The position numbers and the translations under genes were made by a program. The notes below the pieces were generated by a model. That model was not told where the DNA came from and ran no database searches. It was given only the letters and a program-made list of their open reading frames with translations. Source: a virus (lineage: Duplodnaviria; Caudoviricetes). From it: DNA of 31,471 bases. The stretch spans positions 1-31,471 of IMG/VR virus record IMGVR_UViG_3300017912_001626; one strand, written 5' to 3'. Below, in pieces: positions 7,262 through 31,471 of the stretch (position 1 is the stretch's first letter; every line of letters begins with the position of its first letter).

Positions 7262-8476
7262 ATGGGGAAAAAAGGGAATCCAGCTTTACAAGAACAATTC
7301 AGTGGCGCTTTTGGTGTTTGGTCTAATTCTTATGACGCACCAACAGGTTACGGGCAGCAGGTCAAGTATCTGATTGACCGTCTTGTTCGTCACGGTTTAG
7401 ATGTTGCTAACTTCTCTAACTTTGGATTAGAAGGCAAGATTGACACCATTCAAACACCACACGGTCCGGTACGTCATTTCCCGCGAAGCTTTCAGGGTTA
7501 CTCGCAGGACACGGCACCACTGGATTTTATGACGTGGGCTAACTCGGTTGCGAAGAAAGACCTGTTCTTCACTTTGTATGATGCGTGGGTTTTGGAGTCA
7601 CCGCAGTACGAGAAGATGCGTCAAATTTGGTCGTGGACACCTATCGATCACATTGTCATGGTGTCGAAGGTTCGTGAATGGTTGAAACGCCCTAACGTGC
7701 TTCCTATTGCTATGTCACCATTCGGTCAACGCGAAATGGACAAAGCAAATATAGAGAACGTGTATATACCTCACGGTATTGACACAAAGGTGTTGAAGGA
7801 AACCTGGACGTTGACTACTGGTTCTGATGTTCGTGATTATTGGAGCACTCGGGACAAGTTTGTTGTGGGGATGGTGGCAGCTAATAAGGCTTCTGGTTTG
7901 GTTCACCGGAAAGCGTTTAGCGAGAACTTGATGGCGTTTAGTATTTTCCAGAAACGTCACCCTGACGCTGTACTGTATTTGCACACTGACGCCACAGGAT
8001 CAGGTATTGGTTGGAACCTGTTGGAGTTGCTGAAGTCTTTGGGTGTACCGCAGGACGCTACATTGTTGGTGAATCCTTTGGAGTACCGTTATGGTTCACC
8101 GCAGGAGAATCTGGCAGCGTATTACACGGGTATGGATGTTCTTCTTGCCCCGTCTATGGGTGAGGGGTTTGGTGTGCCTACGATTGAGGCGCAAGCGTGT
8201 GGCACTCGGGTAATTGCTTCTAACTGGGCTGCTTCTCAGGACCTTGTTGCTGAGGATGGTTGGTTGGTTGATGGGACACCGGTGTGGGATGCGGGTCAGT
8301 TGTCTTGGTGGCAAACACCGTCTGTGCCGTCGATTGTGGACGCCCTGGAGCAGGCTTACCAGGAGGGTAAGGGTAAATCTGAGAAGGCTGTGGCGTTTGC
8401 GAAACAGTTTGATGTTGAGAAGGTGTGGAAAGAGTCTTGGATGCCGTTGTTGAGGACAGAGTTTGAAACGGCTTGA
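7262..8476 (+). CDS. Glycosyltransferase, GT-B fold (GT4-like)
   Basis: Motifs PTGYGQQ, YIPHGID, PSMGEGFGVPTIEAQACG; leaderless promoter TAAGCT at 7250-7255. Confidence 0.88.
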   Translation: MGKKGNPALQEQFSGAFGVWSNSYDAPTGYGQQVKYLIDRLVRHGLDVANFSNFGLEGKIDTIQTPHGPVRHFPRSFQGYSQDTAPLDFMTWANSVAKKDLFFTLYDAWVLESPQYEKMRQIWSWTPIDHIVMVSKVREWLKRPNVLPIAMSPFGQREMDKANIENVYIPHGIDTKVLKETWTLTTGSDVRDYWSTRDKFVVGMVAANKASGLVHRKAFSENLMAFSIFQKRHPDAVLYLHTDATGSGIGWNLLELLKSLGVPQDATLLVNPLEYRYGSPQENLAAYYTGMDVLLAPSMGEGFGVPTIEAQACGTRVIASNWAASQDLVAEDGWLVDGTPVWDAGQLSWWQTPSVPSIVDALEQAYQEGKGKSEKAVAFAKQFDVEKVWKESWMPLLRTEFETA

Positions 8477-9113
8477 CACGTTAAAAGATAAGCACCCCGG
8501 TTCTACAATCTGGGTGTTTGGTTCTGGTGCAACCATGAATTATTTGTCGCCAGAATTCTTCGCCGACAAGCTTGTGGTGGGTGCGAACGGCGGGGCTCAT
8601 TATTTCGGTGTGAAACCCGCGTATTCTTTCAGCCATCATCACGAGTTCGCCAATATCCCCTCCTTGGCAACGGAGCATCCTGAAACTGTGTTTGTTGTGA
8701 ACCGGCAGGACTATCACACCAAAGCTGTTTATAACGGTGCCTACGAGAATGTAATTGTTCACGATCCAAAAACGGAGAAAAATAGTCACGACAAGTTTGA
8801 CCCATTCCACCATGACCGCCCCGCTCACGCTGATCAGCTTGTGTTCGGTTCTTCGAGTGTTCACGGAGCAATGCACCTGGCTGCTTATGTGGGCGCGAAG
8901 AACATTGTTCTTGTGGGTGTGGATTGTGGGATATTGGATGGTGACGCAAACTTTGACGCCTACCCTTCGGTGACGCAACGCCAGTTCGCGGTATGGAATC
9001 GGCATCTTGCTTTGATGCGTGACTGGCTGAAAGACACTTACGGTGTGAATACTTATTCGTTGAACCCGTTTGTGAACCTGCATCTTGAGGGTCACACGTT
9101 TCAGGGTGTGTGA
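8463..9113 (+). CDS. Maf/DUF115-like (sialyltransferase-fold) putative glycosyltransferase
   Basis: Motifs IWVFGSGATM and GSSSVHGAMHLAAYVGAKNIVLVGVD; lies between two glycosyltransferases. Confidence 0.65.
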   Translation: MKRLDTLKDKHPGSTIWVFGSGATMNYLSPEFFADKLVVGANGGAHYFGVKPAYSFSHHHEFANIPSLATEHPETVFVVNRQDYHTKAVYNGAYENVIVHDPKTEKNSHDKFDPFHHDRPAHADQLVFGSSSVHGAMHLAAYVGAKNIVLVGVDCGILDGDANFDAYPSVTQRQFAVWNRHLALMRDWLKDTYGVNTYSLNPFVNLHLEGHTFQGV

Positions 9114-9769
9114 TGTTACCTAATCTGATTGTTCCTGTGTTGAACAGGTATGACTTGTTGCGTCGAATGTTTCAATCAATTCACTACCCGGTACGGGACC
9201 TTCTCATTATTGATAATGGTGGCGAGTTCTACGATGTTCTACATTCTGAGTTCGTGCAGAACGTTCGTGTTTTGAATATGCCGAGCAATCTTGGGGTGGC
9301 TTCCTCTTGGAATCTTGGTATCAAGCTATTTCCGCACGATGATCGGTGGTTTTTTGCCTCAAATGATGCTTGGTTTACTGGTAGTGGTCTTGAGAGCCTC
9401 TCAGCGGCCCGTAGAGACGAGATAACCCTTTCTGATGTGTTTCCCTTCTGGCATGTGTTTTGTGTCGGTGAGACCGCCTTCCAGCGCCTCGGTTTTTTCG
9501 ATGAAGCCCTACATCCGGCTTATCACGAAGATAAGGACTATGAGAGGCGTGCAGCGCACGCTGAAGTGCCTGTTCGGAGGATTCCTATTGCTGGTGGGCA
9601 CGATAATTCGTCTACAATTCGGTCAGACAACAATCTTTCCAGCATCAATAACAAAACGTTCCCGGATAACACTTTGTATTACAACAGCAAGATGGCGCGT
9701 GAGGATTATGGTGAGGGGCGTTGGGATTTGCAACGTAGACGCCGTAACAGTTGGGATACGCCACGATAG
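9110..9769 (+). CDS. Glycosyltransferase, GT-A fold (GT2-like)
   Basis: Motifs LIVPVLNR, LLIIDNG, NLGVASSWNLG, GFFDE, YHEDKDY. Confidence 0.85.
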   Translation: MMLPNLIVPVLNRYDLLRRMFQSIHYPVRDLLIIDNGGEFYDVLHSEFVQNVRVLNMPSNLGVASSWNLGIKLFPHDDRWFFASNDAWFTGSGLESLSAARRDEITLSDVFPFWHVFCVGETAFQRLGFFDEALHPAYHEDKDYERRAAHAEVPVRRIPIAGGHDNSSTIRSDNNLSSINNKTFPDNTLYYNSKMAREDYGEGRWDLQRRRRNSWDTPR

Positions 9770-19487: not shown

Positions 19488-19689
19488 AATTCGCGCTTAT
19501 TTTAAGTACGCCACGGAAAGAGCTGTGAAAACAATCGCTCAGACCGCGCTCGCAACTATTGGTGGGACAGCGTTGGGTGTGATGGATGTAAACTGGGTAT
19601 CCGTCTTGTCAATCAGCGCACTTGCTGGAATCATGTCGCTGTTGACTTCGGTTCTTCAGTATGACCGTGTACCAGCAGAGGAGAAGTAG
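19480..19689 (+). CDS. Holin (r1t-like)
   Basis: ATERAVKTIAQTALA...VNW...SLLTS signature; GAGG SD before MDKIR. Confidence 0.85.
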   Translation: MDKIRAYFKYATERAVKTIAQTALATIGGTALGVMDVNWVSVLSISALAGIMSLLTSVLQYDRVPAEEK

Positions 19690-19778
19690 TGGCCGATTTG
19701 GATTTGTTTGAGAACATCAATGGGGTTGTTTGCCCGATTGATCCGGCAGAAGCAGAGATGTGCGAATCCTGTCAATAA
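19689..19778 (+). CDS. Acidic microprotein, 29 aa (MADLDLFENINGVVCPIDPAEAEMCESCQ)
   Basis: GAGGAG SD; TAGTG overlap with the holin; C-terminal C-x9-CxxC-Q. Confidence 0.65.
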   Translation: MADLDLFENINGVVCPIDPAEAEMCESCQ

Positions 19779-19796
19779 TTATGTTATAGTTGGGAT

Positions 19797-19857
19797 GTTC
19801 ATTTGATATTCCTTTCTTGAAGCCCCCGGATTGTCCACCACAGTCCGGGGGTTTTCT
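19797..19857 (+). ncRNA. Candidate anti-RBS small RNA
   Basis: Extended -10 TGTTATAGT at 19782-19790; unstructured TTCATTTGATATTCCTTTCT followed by a terminator; complementary to accessory-gene RBS and ATG. Confidence 0.5.
19819..19857 (+). terminator. Terminator between the convergent late operon and HTH gene
   Basis: AAGCCCCCGGA...TCCGGGGGTTTT hairpin. Confidence 0.85.
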
Positions 19858-20063
19858 TATTCAATCCATTGGTGGATAGTGCGACGAGTTACACCAGCTT
19901 TCTTAGCTAACTCGGTCACACCGATTCCTTCGGCGTAGCCTTCGCGTACTTTGTCCCGGAGTACTTCTGTGACGATTTGTAGGCGCGATAATTCCCAGTC
20001 GCGCATGTCAGCGATCATGTCAAGTGAGTACCCAGCTATGTGGGCTTTTGTCATTTCTTGCAT
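19857..20063 (-). CDS. Small HTH DNA-binding protein
   Basis: VTELAKKAGVTRRTIHQW HTH; leaderless, with TACTAT then 6 nt then ATG. Confidence 0.8.
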   Translation of the reverse strand: MQEMTKAHIAGYSLDMIADMRDWELSRLQIVTEVLRDKVREGYAEGIGVTELAKKAGVTRRTIHQWIE

Positions 20064-26349: not shown

Positions 26350-27494
26350 TGTTGGATGATTTGCAACCTGCGAAGAAGGTTGAGGCACCGTCAGGGTTTC
26401 GTCCCGCTATCGAGTTCGATGGCAATGAAGGTGTTGCCACTACTGAGGGTTTACCTGATGCCCCTAATTTTGATGAGTTTCTTGCGGAACGTGGTTATTC
26501 CCCGGAGGAGTATGAGGTAGTAGGGACACCGCGTACTTCTCAATGGCAACGCTGGGATGGGGAATGGCTCACGGCCTATCGCTTCCATTTCCGCAAGAAA
26601 GTTTCTGATGTTGATTTGCCGACATTGTTCGCTGAGGCCAGGAAAACTAAACCACCGAAGCAGGTGAAGCGCGGTAAGGATAAAGCATTTGTTGTTGTGC
26701 CGTCGGATTTGCAGGTGGGTAAGACTGGTAGCCGTGGCACGACAAAGGAGTTCTTGGCTCGCGTGTTTGAGTCGTTTGACCGTATTGAGGATGCGATAAA
26801 GCAGGCGAAGCCGGAGAAGATTGTCATTATTGATGCTGGTGACATTATCGAGTCGGTGTCGAATAAGGGTGATCAGATTCAGTTGGAGTCGAATGATTTG
26901 TCACCTATGCAACAGGTTGATATGGCGGCGTCGATTATGTGGGACCTTATCAAGCGTTGCTCGAAGTATGGTCCTGTCGAGTACGGGTCGGTTGCGTCTA
27001 ACCATTGTCAGTGGCGTCACCACGGTCAGGTTGTGGGTAGGCCAGGTAAAGACGATTGGGGTGTTGTGATTCTGCAACAGCTTCGCCGTCTCGCTCACGA
27101 GGTTGGCCTGGATGTCAAGTTCTACATTCCGCAATCAGACGAGGAGGGGTTCGCCATTGATGTGTTCGGTGATGGTTCTCATGTGCTCGGCGCTATACAC
27201 GGACACCAGGTACGCAACCCGAATGGTATCCCGGACTTTTGGAAGAAAGCCTTGTTCGGTTCACAGTATCTTGCTGCTGTAACGACTCTCGTGACAGGGC
27301 ACTTTCATCACACGATTGTTCAAGAGTTGGGTAATTCACCAAGGGGGGGGTCGCGTTGGTGGATTCAAGCCAGCACAATGGATAACGGTTCGGACTGGTT
27401 CCGCCGTATGGCGCAGGAAGACTCGCAGACCGCGATTACTTGCTTTGAACTTGTAAAGGGTGTTTACTATCAGGGAGAGATTAAACGTCTCTAG
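26349..27494 (+). CDS. Calcineurin-like metallophosphoesterase
   Basis: Motifs SDLQVG, AGD, SNH, HGH, GHFH. Confidence 0.85.
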   Translation: MLDDLQPAKKVEAPSGFRPAIEFDGNEGVATTEGLPDAPNFDEFLAERGYSPEEYEVVGTPRTSQWQRWDGEWLTAYRFHFRKKVSDVDLPTLFAEARKTKPPKQVKRGKDKAFVVVPSDLQVGKTGSRGTTKEFLARVFESFDRIEDAIKQAKPEKIVIIDAGDIIESVSNKGDQIQLESNDLSPMQQVDMAASIMWDLIKRCSKYGPVEYGSVASNHCQWRHHGQVVGRPGKDDWGVVILQQLRRLAHEVGLDVKFYIPQSDEEGFAIDVFGDGSHVLGAIHGHQVRNPNGIPDFWKKALFGSQYLAAVTTLVTGHFHHTIVQELGNSPRGGSRWWIQASTMDNGSDWFRRMAQEDSQTAITCFELVKGVYYQGEIKRL

Positions 27495-27504
27495 TTAGGG
27501 GAAA

Positions 27505-27696
27505 ATGATGACACGGGAACAAGAACTACTACAGATAGCGAACAACTATTCGGAGAAGCTGAGTGGTGTGAAAACTCATCCACCGTTTGATAAGCGTTAC
27601 AGCAAATCATCGAAGGATCGTATAGCAATTTCTATGCGGCATTACTATCGTGAGGTTTCGGCGATTTTCTCGTCGGAAGGGGAAAACAAACAATAA
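27505..27696 (+). CDS. Hypothetical protein
   Basis: AGGGG SD; 63 aa. Confidence 0.5.
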   Translation: MMTREQELLQIANNYSEKLSGVKTHPPFDKRYSKSSKDRIAISMRHYYREVSAIFSSEGENKQ

Positions 27697-27747
27697 TCTC
27701 TCAACAAGGTTATTTTCCCTTGACATATAACTGAATATGCTCAACAT

Positions 27748-27796
27748 AAAAAAAGGGGGGGGTCTCGCCCACACGAGGTCCCTCTCTTTTTGTTTT
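27748..27796 (+). terminator. Long G-U-rich hairpin with U tail (terminator or small RNA)
   Basis: AAAAAGGGGGGGGTCTCG-CCCACA-CGAGGTCCCTCTCTTTTT; pairs fully only on the + strand, using four G-U pairs. Confidence 0.6.
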
Positions 27797-27876
27797 GGGA
27801 GCGTTCTGGTTTCGACTATGTGAAGACCACTTGTGGAGCAGATAGGAGCAGGGTTCGATTCCCTGCGCCTCCACCA
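27797..27876 (+). ncRNA. Mini-tmRNA-like RNA (tRNA-like domain only, 80 nt)
   Basis: 5' GGGAGCG-TTCTGGTTTCGA-C; short P2 stem; GAG linker; T-arm CAGGG-TTCGATT-CCCTG; CGCCTCC-A-CCA with G3-U70. Confidence 0.75.
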
Positions 27877-27877
27877 T

Positions 27878-27944
27878 TCGGTGAAAGTCGGTTAACTCGG
27901 TTCAAAAAAGTTCCTAGGGAAAACAAAATTTCGCAAGTCTTTGA
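27878..27944. repeat. Intergenic repeat, copy 1
   Basis: TTAACTCGGTT (27892)-N23-AAATTTCG (27926), then AGTCTTTGA. Confidence 0.85.
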
Positions 27945-28287: not shown

Positions 28288-28358
28288 TCGGTTTCCGATT
28301 CGGTCTTAACTCGGTTCAAATCGTTTCCCCTGGGGCGCAAAATTTCGTCAGTCTTTGA
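28288..28358. repeat. Intergenic repeat, copy 2
   Basis: TTAACTCGGTT (28306)-N23-AAATTTCG (28340), then AGTCTTTGA. Confidence 0.85.
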
Positions 28359-28364
28359 GGCCAG

Positions 28365-28380
28365 TCGAACATTTGTTCGA
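28365..28380. promoter_or_regulatory. LexA SOS box (actinobacterial consensus)
   Basis: TCGAAC-ATTT-GTTCGA matches TCGAAC-N4-GTTCGA exactly. Confidence 0.7.
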
Positions 28381-28426
28381 TAGGTGGGCGTTTGATAACG
28401 GTTTGGTAAACAAGGCCCGCCGATCC

Positions 28427-28455
28427 TTGACACGCTGCCGAGAGGCGCTTACCGT
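28427..28455 (+). promoter_or_regulatory. SigA-type promoter of the accessory operon
   Basis: TTGACA-N17-TACCGT. Confidence 0.7.
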
Positions 28456-28496
28456 GTCTGTTATCCGCGCCTGACGCGGGAAACAAAGGAAATCAA

Positions 28497-28907
28497 ATGA
28501 CAGTAGAAAAAACACTAGGGAAGGCCGATCTGAGCGCACGCTCGGACGCTCAACTAGCGCACCGTTTCGATCAACAGTTGGACGCTATTTGGCGGCTAGG
28601 TGATCGTGATGAGTGCTCTATCAAACACATTGGGCACGGTATGGCCGCCCTAATTTCTACGGGTGACTGGCGAAACGCCAAAGATTACGAAACCCCGTGG
28701 GGTTATTACCCGTACGGGCAAACCGTGGAACTCGAAAGAAAATATGAGCGCTTAGACGAAAAATGGGGCAAGGTGATTGACACTATTGTTCGCATTGACA
28801 ATCTAGGGCGCGTGGAAGATTCGATCATTCCGGAAACCAAATTCGCTTTTTACATTGAGGCTTACTTGGAAACTTATTGGTATGGCCTTGAGGCGGTGAG
28901 TGAGTAA
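28497..28907 (+). CDS. Hypothetical protein (accessory operon)
   Basis: AAAGGA SD; first gene after the promoter. Confidence 0.75.
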   Translation: MTVEKTLGKADLSARSDAQLAHRFDQQLDAIWRLGDRDECSIKHIGHGMAALISTGDWRNAKDYETPWGYYPYGQTVELERKYERLDEKWGKVIDTIVRIDNLGRVEDSIIPETKFAFYIEAYLETYWYGLEAVSE

Positions 28908-29473: not shown

Positions 29474-29796
29474 TGAGATACACCACGAAAACTAACCCCG
29501 TATTGCGGGAAGTTATTTACGGCGGAGGCTGGGATAAGGGTGACCCGTGGGGTTCTGCAATGTCAAGCGCTTTCGCTGTTGCCGATCACTTGCAGTTTGG
29601 CTTTGGCTGGACGCCGTCAGACTGGGAGTTCACGCCCGCAATGGGTGGCCCCGATGACGATGTCTTTGAATATAGGGCAATAGGTGAAGCCTTGGAAGGG
29701 CTTTCGTATCAGGAAACAAGCAACGTGCTTGTTCACGCGGGCAATGTGCTGCTGAAGTATCGCGGCCTGCTGAAGTCAATGGGGAGGGATTACTAA
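29470..29796 (+). CDS. Hypothetical protein
   Basis: GTGATG overlap. Confidence 0.7.
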   Translation: MMRYTTKTNPVLREVIYGGGWDKGDPWGSAMSSAFAVADHLQFGFGWTPSDWEFTPAMGGPDDDVFEYRAIGEALEGLSYQETSNVLVHAGNVLLKYRGLLKSMGRDY

Positions 29797-29897
29797 TGAG
29801 CGCCGTATTCACGCAACAGTTACTCGCTGCTATCCACGATAGGCGTGTGGAGGACATTATCGCTGGAAGGTTGTCTGATGACGAGTTGGACGATTGA
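29796..29897 (+). CDS. Hypothetical microprotein, 33 aa (MSAVFTQQLLAAIHDRRVEDIIAGRLSDDELDD)
   Basis: GGAGG SD; TAATG overlap; absent from the ORF track. Confidence 0.55.
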   Translation: MSAVFTQQLLAAIHDRRVEDIIAGRLSDDELDD

Positions 29898-30069
29898 CTA
29901 CACCTACGCCTGTTGGAAGTGCCCTGACCGGCACGCCCATAACGCCACGATTGAAGCACCTGACCCTGACCTAGCGGTGGCTATGTGGAGGGCTGATCTT
30001 ATGGGTGACTTTGGTGGCGCTCACGATTATGACCTGTTAGTGACAGACATTAGAAAGGAAATGAAATGA
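29878..30069 (+). CDS. Hypothetical protein (CxxC)
   Basis: GGAAGG SD before MTSW; ATGA overlap with the next gene. Confidence 0.6.
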   Translation: MTSWTIDYTYACWKCPDRHAHNATIEAPDPDLAVAMWRADLMGDFGGAHDYDLLVTDIRKEMK

Positions 30070-30230
30070 AAACATACAGAGTGAACTATGACGGTTGGCT
30101 GGAAGTGGAAGCTAACGATCAAGAACACGCTTTCTTGTTGGCCTATAAAACTCTGAACGCCCCAGAGGCGCTGCCGTGTGATGGCGCTATCGGGGAATGG
30201 TATGTGAACGAACCGGAGGAAACGAAATGA
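30066..30230 (+). CDS. Hypothetical protein, 54 aa (MKTYRVNYDGWLEVEANDQEHA...)
   Basis: AGAAAGGA SD; ATGA overlaps at both ends; absent from the ORF track. Confidence 0.7.
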   Translation: MKTYRVNYDGWLEVEANDQEHAFLLAYKTLNAPEALPCDGAIGEWYVNEPEETK

Positions 30231-30589
30231 AATACCCAATTATTGATTGCCCGCGACACGAAGGCGCTTACGACTGTAATTCGTTTTGTGATGTTTGCGA
30301 GGGTGAGCAACAGTATGAGTGGACACCGTTTCGTCTTTGTACAGATTGCGGCACCGCGATTGATCACGATATTTGGTTTGAGGAATTAGGTATGTGTGTT
30401 GATTGCTCGAACCAATACTTTGGGCATTATGGGAAGTATGACCCGGTTTGGGGTCGTATGGGTAGGCCCGATAACCCGCTGGAGGCGTGTGAGTGTGGGC
30501 AAGATGACCCGCTGCCTGTGGCGCACGAAGATGGTTGCCCTATTTGGGAGGCCGCTAAGAATGAACAAATGGAAAGGGAAATGAAATGA
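30227..30589 (+). CDS. Cys-rich (Zn-binding) hypothetical protein
   Basis: GGAGG SD before MKYP; multiple CxxC motifs. Confidence 0.7.
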   Translation: MKYPIIDCPRHEGAYDCNSFCDVCEGEQQYEWTPFRLCTDCGTAIDHDIWFEELGMCVDCSNQYFGHYGKYDPVWGRMGRPDNPLEACECGQDDPLPVAHEDGCPIWEAAKNEQMEREMK

Positions 30590-31396: not shown

Positions 31397-31471
31397 TCGG
31401 TCTTAACTCGGTTAAGAATAATCTCTAGGGAAACAGAAATTTCGCGAGTTTTGGCTTCGAACACCTGTTTG
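31397..31471. repeat. Intergenic repeat, copy 3, with a truncated SOS-box-like site
   Basis: TTAACTCGGTT (31403)-N23-AAATTTCG (31437); TCGAAC-ACCT-GTTTG at 31457-31471. Confidence 0.8.

Follow-up and report, generated by a model that had tools for sequence, protein, structure and literature searches.

A candidate trans-acting antisense RNA predicted to pair with accessory-gene starts in a phiPsal1-like siphovirus

Sequence comparison points to a short phage RNA (~62 nt) that probably acts in trans, as an antisense sRNA lowering the translation of accessory genes by c4-like action, without belonging to the C4 family. The window analysed here is a whole virus record of 31,471 bases (50.8% G+C). 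A sequence-only reading of this DNA had proposed a trans-acting sRNA directed at accessory-gene starts. The core of that proposal is borne out by conserved blocks, by enrichment of pairing at accessory starts and by seed swaps in two relatives (L237 and L119). One of its sites (30215-30230) and a broad extension to host mRNAs were not supported.

The window genome is that of a phiPsal1-like siphovirus. Pontimonas phage phiPsal1 is the sole annotated phage that it matched, and gene order at the sRNA locus is identical in the two. PHROG matches assign terminase, portal, HK97-like capsid, tail, endolysin and holin to the left part of the window. A minus-strand HTH gene (19857-20063) comes after this structural and lysis part and before an early arm that runs rightward through RecE-like exonuclease, replication initiator, SSB, RusA, exonuclease and HNH. 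Past HNH lie nine ORFs from 28497, mostly without known function, which we call the accessory operon. No integrase was detected among the 57 window ORFs scanned against PHROG. The available part of its description presents phiPsal1 as lytic and at 2% of host coverage (PMC6106888). The host is likely an aquatic Microbacteriaceae, because of the kinship with phiPsal1 and because two phage relatives sit inside an uncultured Microbacteriaceae MAG.

Several other features of the genome were observed. Three glycosyltransferase-like genes (7262-9769, + strand) lie between the capsid and head-tail adaptor genes, as in phiPsal1, and virion glycosylation is a possible role. An 80-nt tRNA-like domain of tmRNA with a CCA end, without the mRNA-like domain or tag, occupies 27797-27876 on the + strand (54.2 bits, E 8e-19 against Rfam tmRNA). 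ARAGORN called a longer tmRNA (27347-27876) that overlaps the exonuclease gene. Similar mini-tmRNAs occur in L012/L237, L016, L063 and L154, and a decoy for SmpB or ribosome rescue is a possible function. A 53-nt repeat is present in three copies (27892-27944, 28306-28358 and 31403-31455) that flank the HNH gene and the accessory operon; these are possibly packaging or recombination sites.

The candidate sRNA and its neighbours are laid out as follows.

19689-19778, + strand: 29-aa small ORF ending CESCQ, the last late-operon gene, directly before the -10
19782-19790, + strand: extended -10 (TGnTAnnnT; TGTTATAGT), without a good -35
19797-19858, + strand: predicted sRNA of ~62 nt, from folding and a covariance model, with +1 placed about 7 nt past the -10
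19797-19818, + strand: predicted single-stranded seed of 22 nt (GTTCATTTGATATTCCTTTCTT), from sequence and folding
19800-19802, + strand: anti-start-codon block (CAT) in the seed, followed by the variable middle
19809-19817, + strand: anti-SD block in the seed (TTCCTTTCT, nearly invariant)
19819-19861, + strand: intrinsic terminator with a 16-bp stem and U-rich tail, a common 3' end with the late operon
19857-20063, - strand: convergent HTH (cI/Cro-like) gene (PHROG), syntenic with phiPsal1_028

This agrees with the earlier description of a ~60-nt unit made of an extended -10, an open stretch of ~22 nt and a terminator. The 16-bp hairpin spans 19819-19855 and is followed by the U-rich tail, and the predicted 3' end overlaps the HTH stop codon (19857-19859). 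Folding of 19797-19860 gave -27.3 kcal/mol (z -5.8), and none of 200 shuffles was as stable. At the sequence level the unit has what a trans-encoded sRNA is expected to have: its own promoter, an intrinsic terminator and no ORF on its strand. A simple promoter and terminator scanner listed neither the promoter at 19782-19790, which lacks a -35, nor the terminator at 19819-19861. Our covariance model R1 found one copy in the window and no second one, and one match per locus in four relatives (91-107 bits). No Rfam family reached its gathering score for the predicted sRNA.

The start point matters for the seed. In an RNA begun at 19797 the mean unpaired probability of the seed is 0.91, against 0.43-0.51 in longer read-through RNA, where an upstream hairpin half-masks it. 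Initiation at its own promoter would thus free a seed that is otherwise half-masked in the late mRNA. The same comparison bears on a different reading, in which the late (lysis) mRNA supplies the active species, either as its own 3' end or as a fragment processed from it, and this brings about late shut-off of the early accessory genes while the internal promoter is minor. The late operon does use the same terminator, and in L119, which has no extended -10, the first accessory start is still matched over 10 nt. However, the masking of the seed in read-through RNA and the strong conservation of the extended -10 make this reading quite improbable.

Conservation was examined with the HTH protein as query, which returned 26 viral loci; 25 were aligned and the incomplete L026 was left out. 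The element is present in 22 of the 25, a different element occupies two (L011/L012), and one locus ends at the terminator. Across 16 distinct aligned sequences, TG.TA.AGT, TTCAT, most of TTCCTTTCT and the terminator core are invariant, and the inner -10 bases, six bases past the -10 and the seed middle (ATA, AAT, AAC or a 2-nt deletion) vary. TGnTAnnnT occurs within 24 nt of the small-ORF stop in 33 of 46 distinct syntenic loci versus 2.2 expected from shuffles, a count that does not represent 33 independent events because the loci are related. A bare -10 on the stop codon was considered as the promoter of loci lacking the extended motif and was rejected (8 of 46 versus 9.9 expected). In the terminator hairpin 96.1% of cells are paired and three pairs show two-sided change. 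Its covariation score of 0.26 was reached by 0 of 500 shuffles, and the pair count itself was not significant (120 of 500). Judged by the fixed -10, anti-AUG and anti-SD blocks, the variable discriminator and seed middle, and the compensated terminator, the + strand unit is under selection.

The same alignments speak to the minus strand. The segment had been conceded to be possibly the RBS of a minus-strand mini-ORF or of a decayed gene. In this reading the ORF would be read through from HTH, and the likeness to accessory starts would reflect that all are strong starts of this phage. A fixed SD and ATG separated by a variable spacer of 4-7 nt would fit a real start, L011/L237 also have a minus-strand SD and ATG, and the minus-strand U-tract is weak in the window. 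Against this, the ORF is 7, 10, 34, 44, 45, 48, 66 or 67 codons long in the 15 relatives with the window seed, and since its length varies from 7 to 67 codons we do not regard it as a gene. In its first codons the changes are non-synonymous while the + strand -10 bases stay fixed. Most relatives have a T4 run past the hairpin on the minus strand, upstream of the mirror RBS. In phiPsal1, L119, L077, L082 and L094 the pyrimidine block is retained and no start codon follows its mirror. We regard a minus-strand start as very unlikely.

The surroundings of the slot vary among relatives. The 29-aa peptide (19689-19778), found in 45 distinct variants among the fetched loci, served as a synteny anchor. 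It has the motif P-x-D-P...C-x-S-C-Q-stop, is present in phiPsal1 though not annotated there, and had no match in Pfam; its end may resemble the CxxC tail at the C-terminus of ribonucleotide reductase. In L118 the HTH gene is missing and the early arm begins right past the terminator. L118 and L119 both lack the extended -10 yet retain the accessory operon. The type-B element of L237 was not matched by R1 at E up to 1, so its equivalence to the window element is a matter of synteny. Many terminator loops at the slot are rich in C/U and resemble an anti-SD sequence (CTCCACC or longer, for example in L069, L078, L081 and L112), and in loci almost without a seed the loop could be the pairing element.

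By inspection, the 43 exact-pattern matches in viral contigs were, outside the clade, mostly ordinary minus-strand gene starts. Also outside the clade, a pyrimidine anti-SD stretch directly precedes a strong hairpin in L028 (656-748) and in L279 (near 2306, minus-oriented); these are possible analogous RNAs. Seven distant phage loci share a similar early promoter, and the DNA fetched for them held nothing that was clearly an antisense unit directed at the first RBS. L279 has one 8-nt match to the first RBS, ahead of a strong hairpin.

The accessory operon has a compact control region with the following features.

28365-28380, no strand: LexA (SOS) box-like palindrome, the sole CGAAC-N4-GTTCG site in the window
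28427-28455, + strand: accessory promoter TTGACA-17-TACCGT, from sequence and conserved in relatives
28465-28479, + strand: leader hairpin past the accessory promoter, from sequence

The palindrome, which we take to resemble an actinobacterial LexA box, is retained in L016, L020, L124, L150 and L151. Its position upstream of the promoter hints that the accessory operon is tightly controlled. A conserved GATAACGGTTTGGTAA motif (28395-28432) lies ahead of the accessory promoter; this motif with TTGAC was found in 48 viral loci, often within repeated promoters. The accessory target proteins gave no confident family match, and the first of them (28497) has 18 homologues, none with a credible name.

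We compared the seed with 53 hand-set start regions, nine accessory and 44 others. The predicted target sites are listed with duplex energies in kcal/mol, without and then with accessibility.

28485-28500, + strand: primary predicted target, RBS and start of 28497, the first accessory gene (-18.7; -17.1)
29780-29801, + strand: predicted target, start of the small ORF 29796 (-19.6; -14.1)
30052-30070, + strand: predicted target, RBS and start of the 30066 gene (-18.4; -10.1)
30215-30230, + strand: doubtful weak target, 30227 gene (-12.0, 17th of 53; -9.9)
30572-30589, + strand: predicted target, RBS and start of the 30586 gene (-18.6; -18.7)

The sites lie 8.7-10.8 kb from the sRNA locus. The four highest-ranked of the 53 start regions are all accessory (29796, 28497, 30586 and 30066, in that order), and six non-accessory control starts gave -5.9 to -13.5 with accessibility. 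The four stretches named beforehand were found where they had been placed and together form one repeat family. Among them, the 16-nt match with one bulge at 28485-28500 and the 18-of-19 match at 30052-30070 were reproduced, and 30572-30589, described as weaker, ranks with the strongest. The site at 30215-30230 shows pairing of an ordinary SD level. The start of 29796, the best scorer, had not been named; its pairing needs a 4x4 internal loop and G-U pairs.

Over all start regions the seed separated accessory from other starts with an AUC of 0.938 (Mann-Whitney p 2.1e-5). A generic anti-SD probe (12 nt) reached 0.74, four foreign seeds 0.45-0.61 and the related G001 seed 0.75. With automatic gene calls the AUC was 0.85 in the window, 0.75 in G001 (p 0.007), 0.82 in L247 (p 0.04) and 0.67 in G003 (p 0.07). 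For three named targets the locus ranked first of 19,959 genome 24-mers and none of 3000 shuffles of the 5' half reached it, a test that is partly circular because these targets were picked for matching. In reverse searches with each target, the locus ranked third for 28497 and 30066, sixth for 30586 and 165th for 30227. As in a trans-encoded sRNA, a conserved and accessible seed shows imperfect complementarity to distant starts beyond chance.

Pairing by chance, in which an A/T-rich flank of the terminator mirrors purine-rich starts by accident, has almost nothing left to recommend it. Duplexes that tolerate G-U pairs are permissive, and windows away from starts score as low as -19.4 (+ strand) and -22.8 (- strand). 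The conservation of the unit and the AUC of 0.94 largely refute this reading, and the seed swaps in relatives also stand against it. A general anti-Shine-Dalgarno decoy acting chiefly on host mRNAs is highly improbable too. In its favour, the seed has a plain anti-SD block as its 3' half, C-rich terminator loops are common in the family, and the available text on the 6C sRNA describes binding to many mRNAs without chaperones (PMC6486639). However, the 5' half by itself picks out accessory starts with an AUC of 0.86, above the 0.76 of the anti-SD half. In addition, AGAAAGGAN{3,8}ATGA has only five matches in a 2.3-Mb Microbacteriaceae MAG, which is a binning-level guess at the host; two of the five are the element's own mirror on phage contigs. 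The three remaining matches do not favour broad targeting of host mRNAs by the full signature.

Covariation of seed and targets in related phages, proposed as a check, was found in part. Seven contigs contain both the slot and the first accessory start, and four of these have the window seed type. In L237 both partners are entirely different: the seed follows a TGATATAGT box, and the first accessory start follows the same TTGACAC promoter. Its seed scored -18.9 with its own first start versus -5.4 to -8.6 with six foreign ones (16 of 2000 shuffles), and that of L119 scored -16.9 versus -8.1 to -11.1 (4 of 2000). In both, the longest Watson-Crick match falls at the first accessory start (9 nt among 45 starts in L237, 10 nt among 31 in L119). 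In phiPsal1 there are 10-nt complements to the seed both at gene 029, which leads the early genes, and at 034. In G001 and L247 the start equivalent to 30066 carries a 13-nt perfect complement to the genome's own seed.

Other relatives do not follow this pattern. L118 has the accessory operon and a seed without a match (-9.0). The L247 pair does not stand out from its shuffles (308 of 2000). In G003 the seed middle does not follow the target spacer and the longest match is 6 nt. Compensation at the fine scale of the seed middle (ATA in the window versus the deletion in G001) was rejected, being good in two genomes and failing in G003. Separately, G006 was dropped as a genome without the accessory operon, as its contig ends just past the accessory promoter. 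The matrix for the first gene is borderline (238 of 5040 permutations, or 2 of 24 after the seeds are collapsed into four types). With 12 seed types set against all early starts, own-genome pairing was better than under permutation (425-1326 of 100,000), with several contigs incomplete. In that matrix its own genome comes only fourth by energy for the window seed, and ninth to twelfth for the seeds of L156, L120 and L118. A wider scan of 48 loci for contigs with both ends added no new seed and first-start pair.

The seed of L237 matches its first gene alone and not the operon (AUC 0.40). The window seed also favours accessory starts in L237 (AUC 0.81) and L119 (0.84), neither of which has that seed. 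Because the start signature persists there, it does not depend on the RNA. This speaks against the proposal that the start sequence common to these genes is there to serve the sRNA; from these comparisons, the signature belongs to the clade, and the seed has come to fit it. For the first gene, covariation appears real in two or three lineages (L237, L119 and phiPsal1), and it is unproven beyond, with L118 and the fine scale of G003 against it.

These results also bear on a reading in which the RNA, like OOP, would act in cis and target the convergent HTH mRNA at its 3' end, or would do no more than insulate the two transcription units, the seed being left over from an inverted gene start. The overlap of the RNA 3' end with the HTH stop codon would suit it. 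Promoter, terminator and HTH gene are syntenic clade-wide, and L118, which lacks the HTH gene, also lacks the extended -10. The distant seeds of L156, L120 and L104 have no good target in their own genomes. However, the overlap is nearly all hairpin against hairpin. sar is cis-encoded, and RNAs of the OOP and sar type have a long perfect overlap with their target, whereas the overlap with HTH here consists of the terminator and the stop codon. The fixed anti-AUG and anti-SD blocks and the match of the L237 and L119 seeds to their own first starts are also left unexplained. We consider action in cis unlikely.

For the preferred trans-acting sRNA we propose the following mechanism. Host RNA polymerase would use the extended -10 to start the ~62-nt RNA, placing +1 near 19797. 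The open 5' seed would pair over the SD and AUG of 28497, 30066, 30586 and perhaps 29796. Pairing may proceed without a chaperone, which we propose on the precedent of the actinobacterial 6C sRNA, in the excerpts available (PMC6486639). The duplex would then block ribosome loading and so repress translation. The purpose, the step that we put forward with most reserve, may be to damp or shut off the early accessory block, either after the block has served its function or while the phage is in a carrier state. A broader and more tentative model, which we hold to be possible though not the likelier case, is that in phages of aquatic Microbacteriaceae the space from the lysis module to the HTH gene is a constant slot for an sRNA, made up of an extended -10, an exchangeable seed and a terminator. 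Its seed would be re-programmed to the leading accessory or early start. Such a slot would provide a modular antisense brake that works at long range and without a chaperone, and that the phage would need in order to carry its hypervariable host-takeover genes safely.

Most phage antisense RNAs whose targets are known are either cis-encoded or belong to immunity operons, the latter in a small number of enterobacterial phages. If our reading is true, a 62-nt RNA that reads an SD-plus-AUG signature common to remote accessory genes, with seeds swapped from one relative to another, would point to post-transcriptional timing of early genes in a small actinophage. The sRNA would also mark which uncharacterised genes the phage must restrain. 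The window and L237 offer a natural orthogonal pair, and phiPsal1, a syntenic sequenced phage, has a cultured host.

We compared the candidate with known RNAs, using the available portions of the cited papers. The literature covered, mostly open-access main texts, held no description of the window sRNA or of phiPsal1 regulation. The sole sRNA match at the locus was RybB (RF00110; 29.2 bits, E 0.04, below the gathering score of 40), an enterobacterial host RNA. Like RybB, the candidate has a single-stranded 5' seed and a terminator, but the alignment is mostly terminator and pyrimidine run. No match to Rfam 6C was found for the window unit. In the portion of the source available, 6C is a host RNA with two C-rich loops (PMC6486639), unlike the one hairpin and the U-rich linear seed spanning a start codon seen here.

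Among phage RNAs, sar of P22 and OOP of lambda are likewise short antisense RNAs with their own promoters, sar blocking initiation of ant translation and OOP being convergent to a regulator gene (PMC12197685, in part). OOP is cis-encoded and both are perfectly complementary to one target, whereas the predicted pairing here is imperfect, in trans and with several starts. PreS of lambda, VpdS of VP882 and 24B_1 are, as proposed for the candidate, phage-encoded sRNAs acting at a distance. In the available text they are Hfq-associated, come from proteobacterial phages and have host or single antirepressor targets (PMC12197685); the predicted targets here are a phage's own accessory genes, in an actinobacterial phage. 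Table S1 of the same paper, as far as available, tabulates 38 uncharacterised phage sRNAs. Similar in setting are the highly transcribed intergenic RNAs of actinophages, such as nc_2 of Rhodococcus phage WC1, an abundant non-coding RNA in mid-genome, between gene arms. The available portion gives no target or mechanism for them (PMC10986025).

In its predicted action the candidate resembles c4 of P1 and P7, an RNA of similar size (~77 nt) that occludes RBSs of the phage's own mRNA, in the portions of the sources available (PMC5320573, PMC8198154). The window had no match to Rfam C4 at E up to 1. In the same portions, c4 has three stem-loops with binding loops a' and b', is cut from a precursor by RNase P and has its targets in its own immI operon. 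The candidate, in contrast, has one terminator hairpin with a linear 5' seed, its own predicted promoter and remote predicted targets. Also as described in part for c4, a few changed bases in RNA and target set the specificity between related phages (PMC5320573, PMC8198154), as the seed swaps suggest here. The proposed brake can be likened to an antitoxin RNA guarding a toxin gene, but from 9 kb away.
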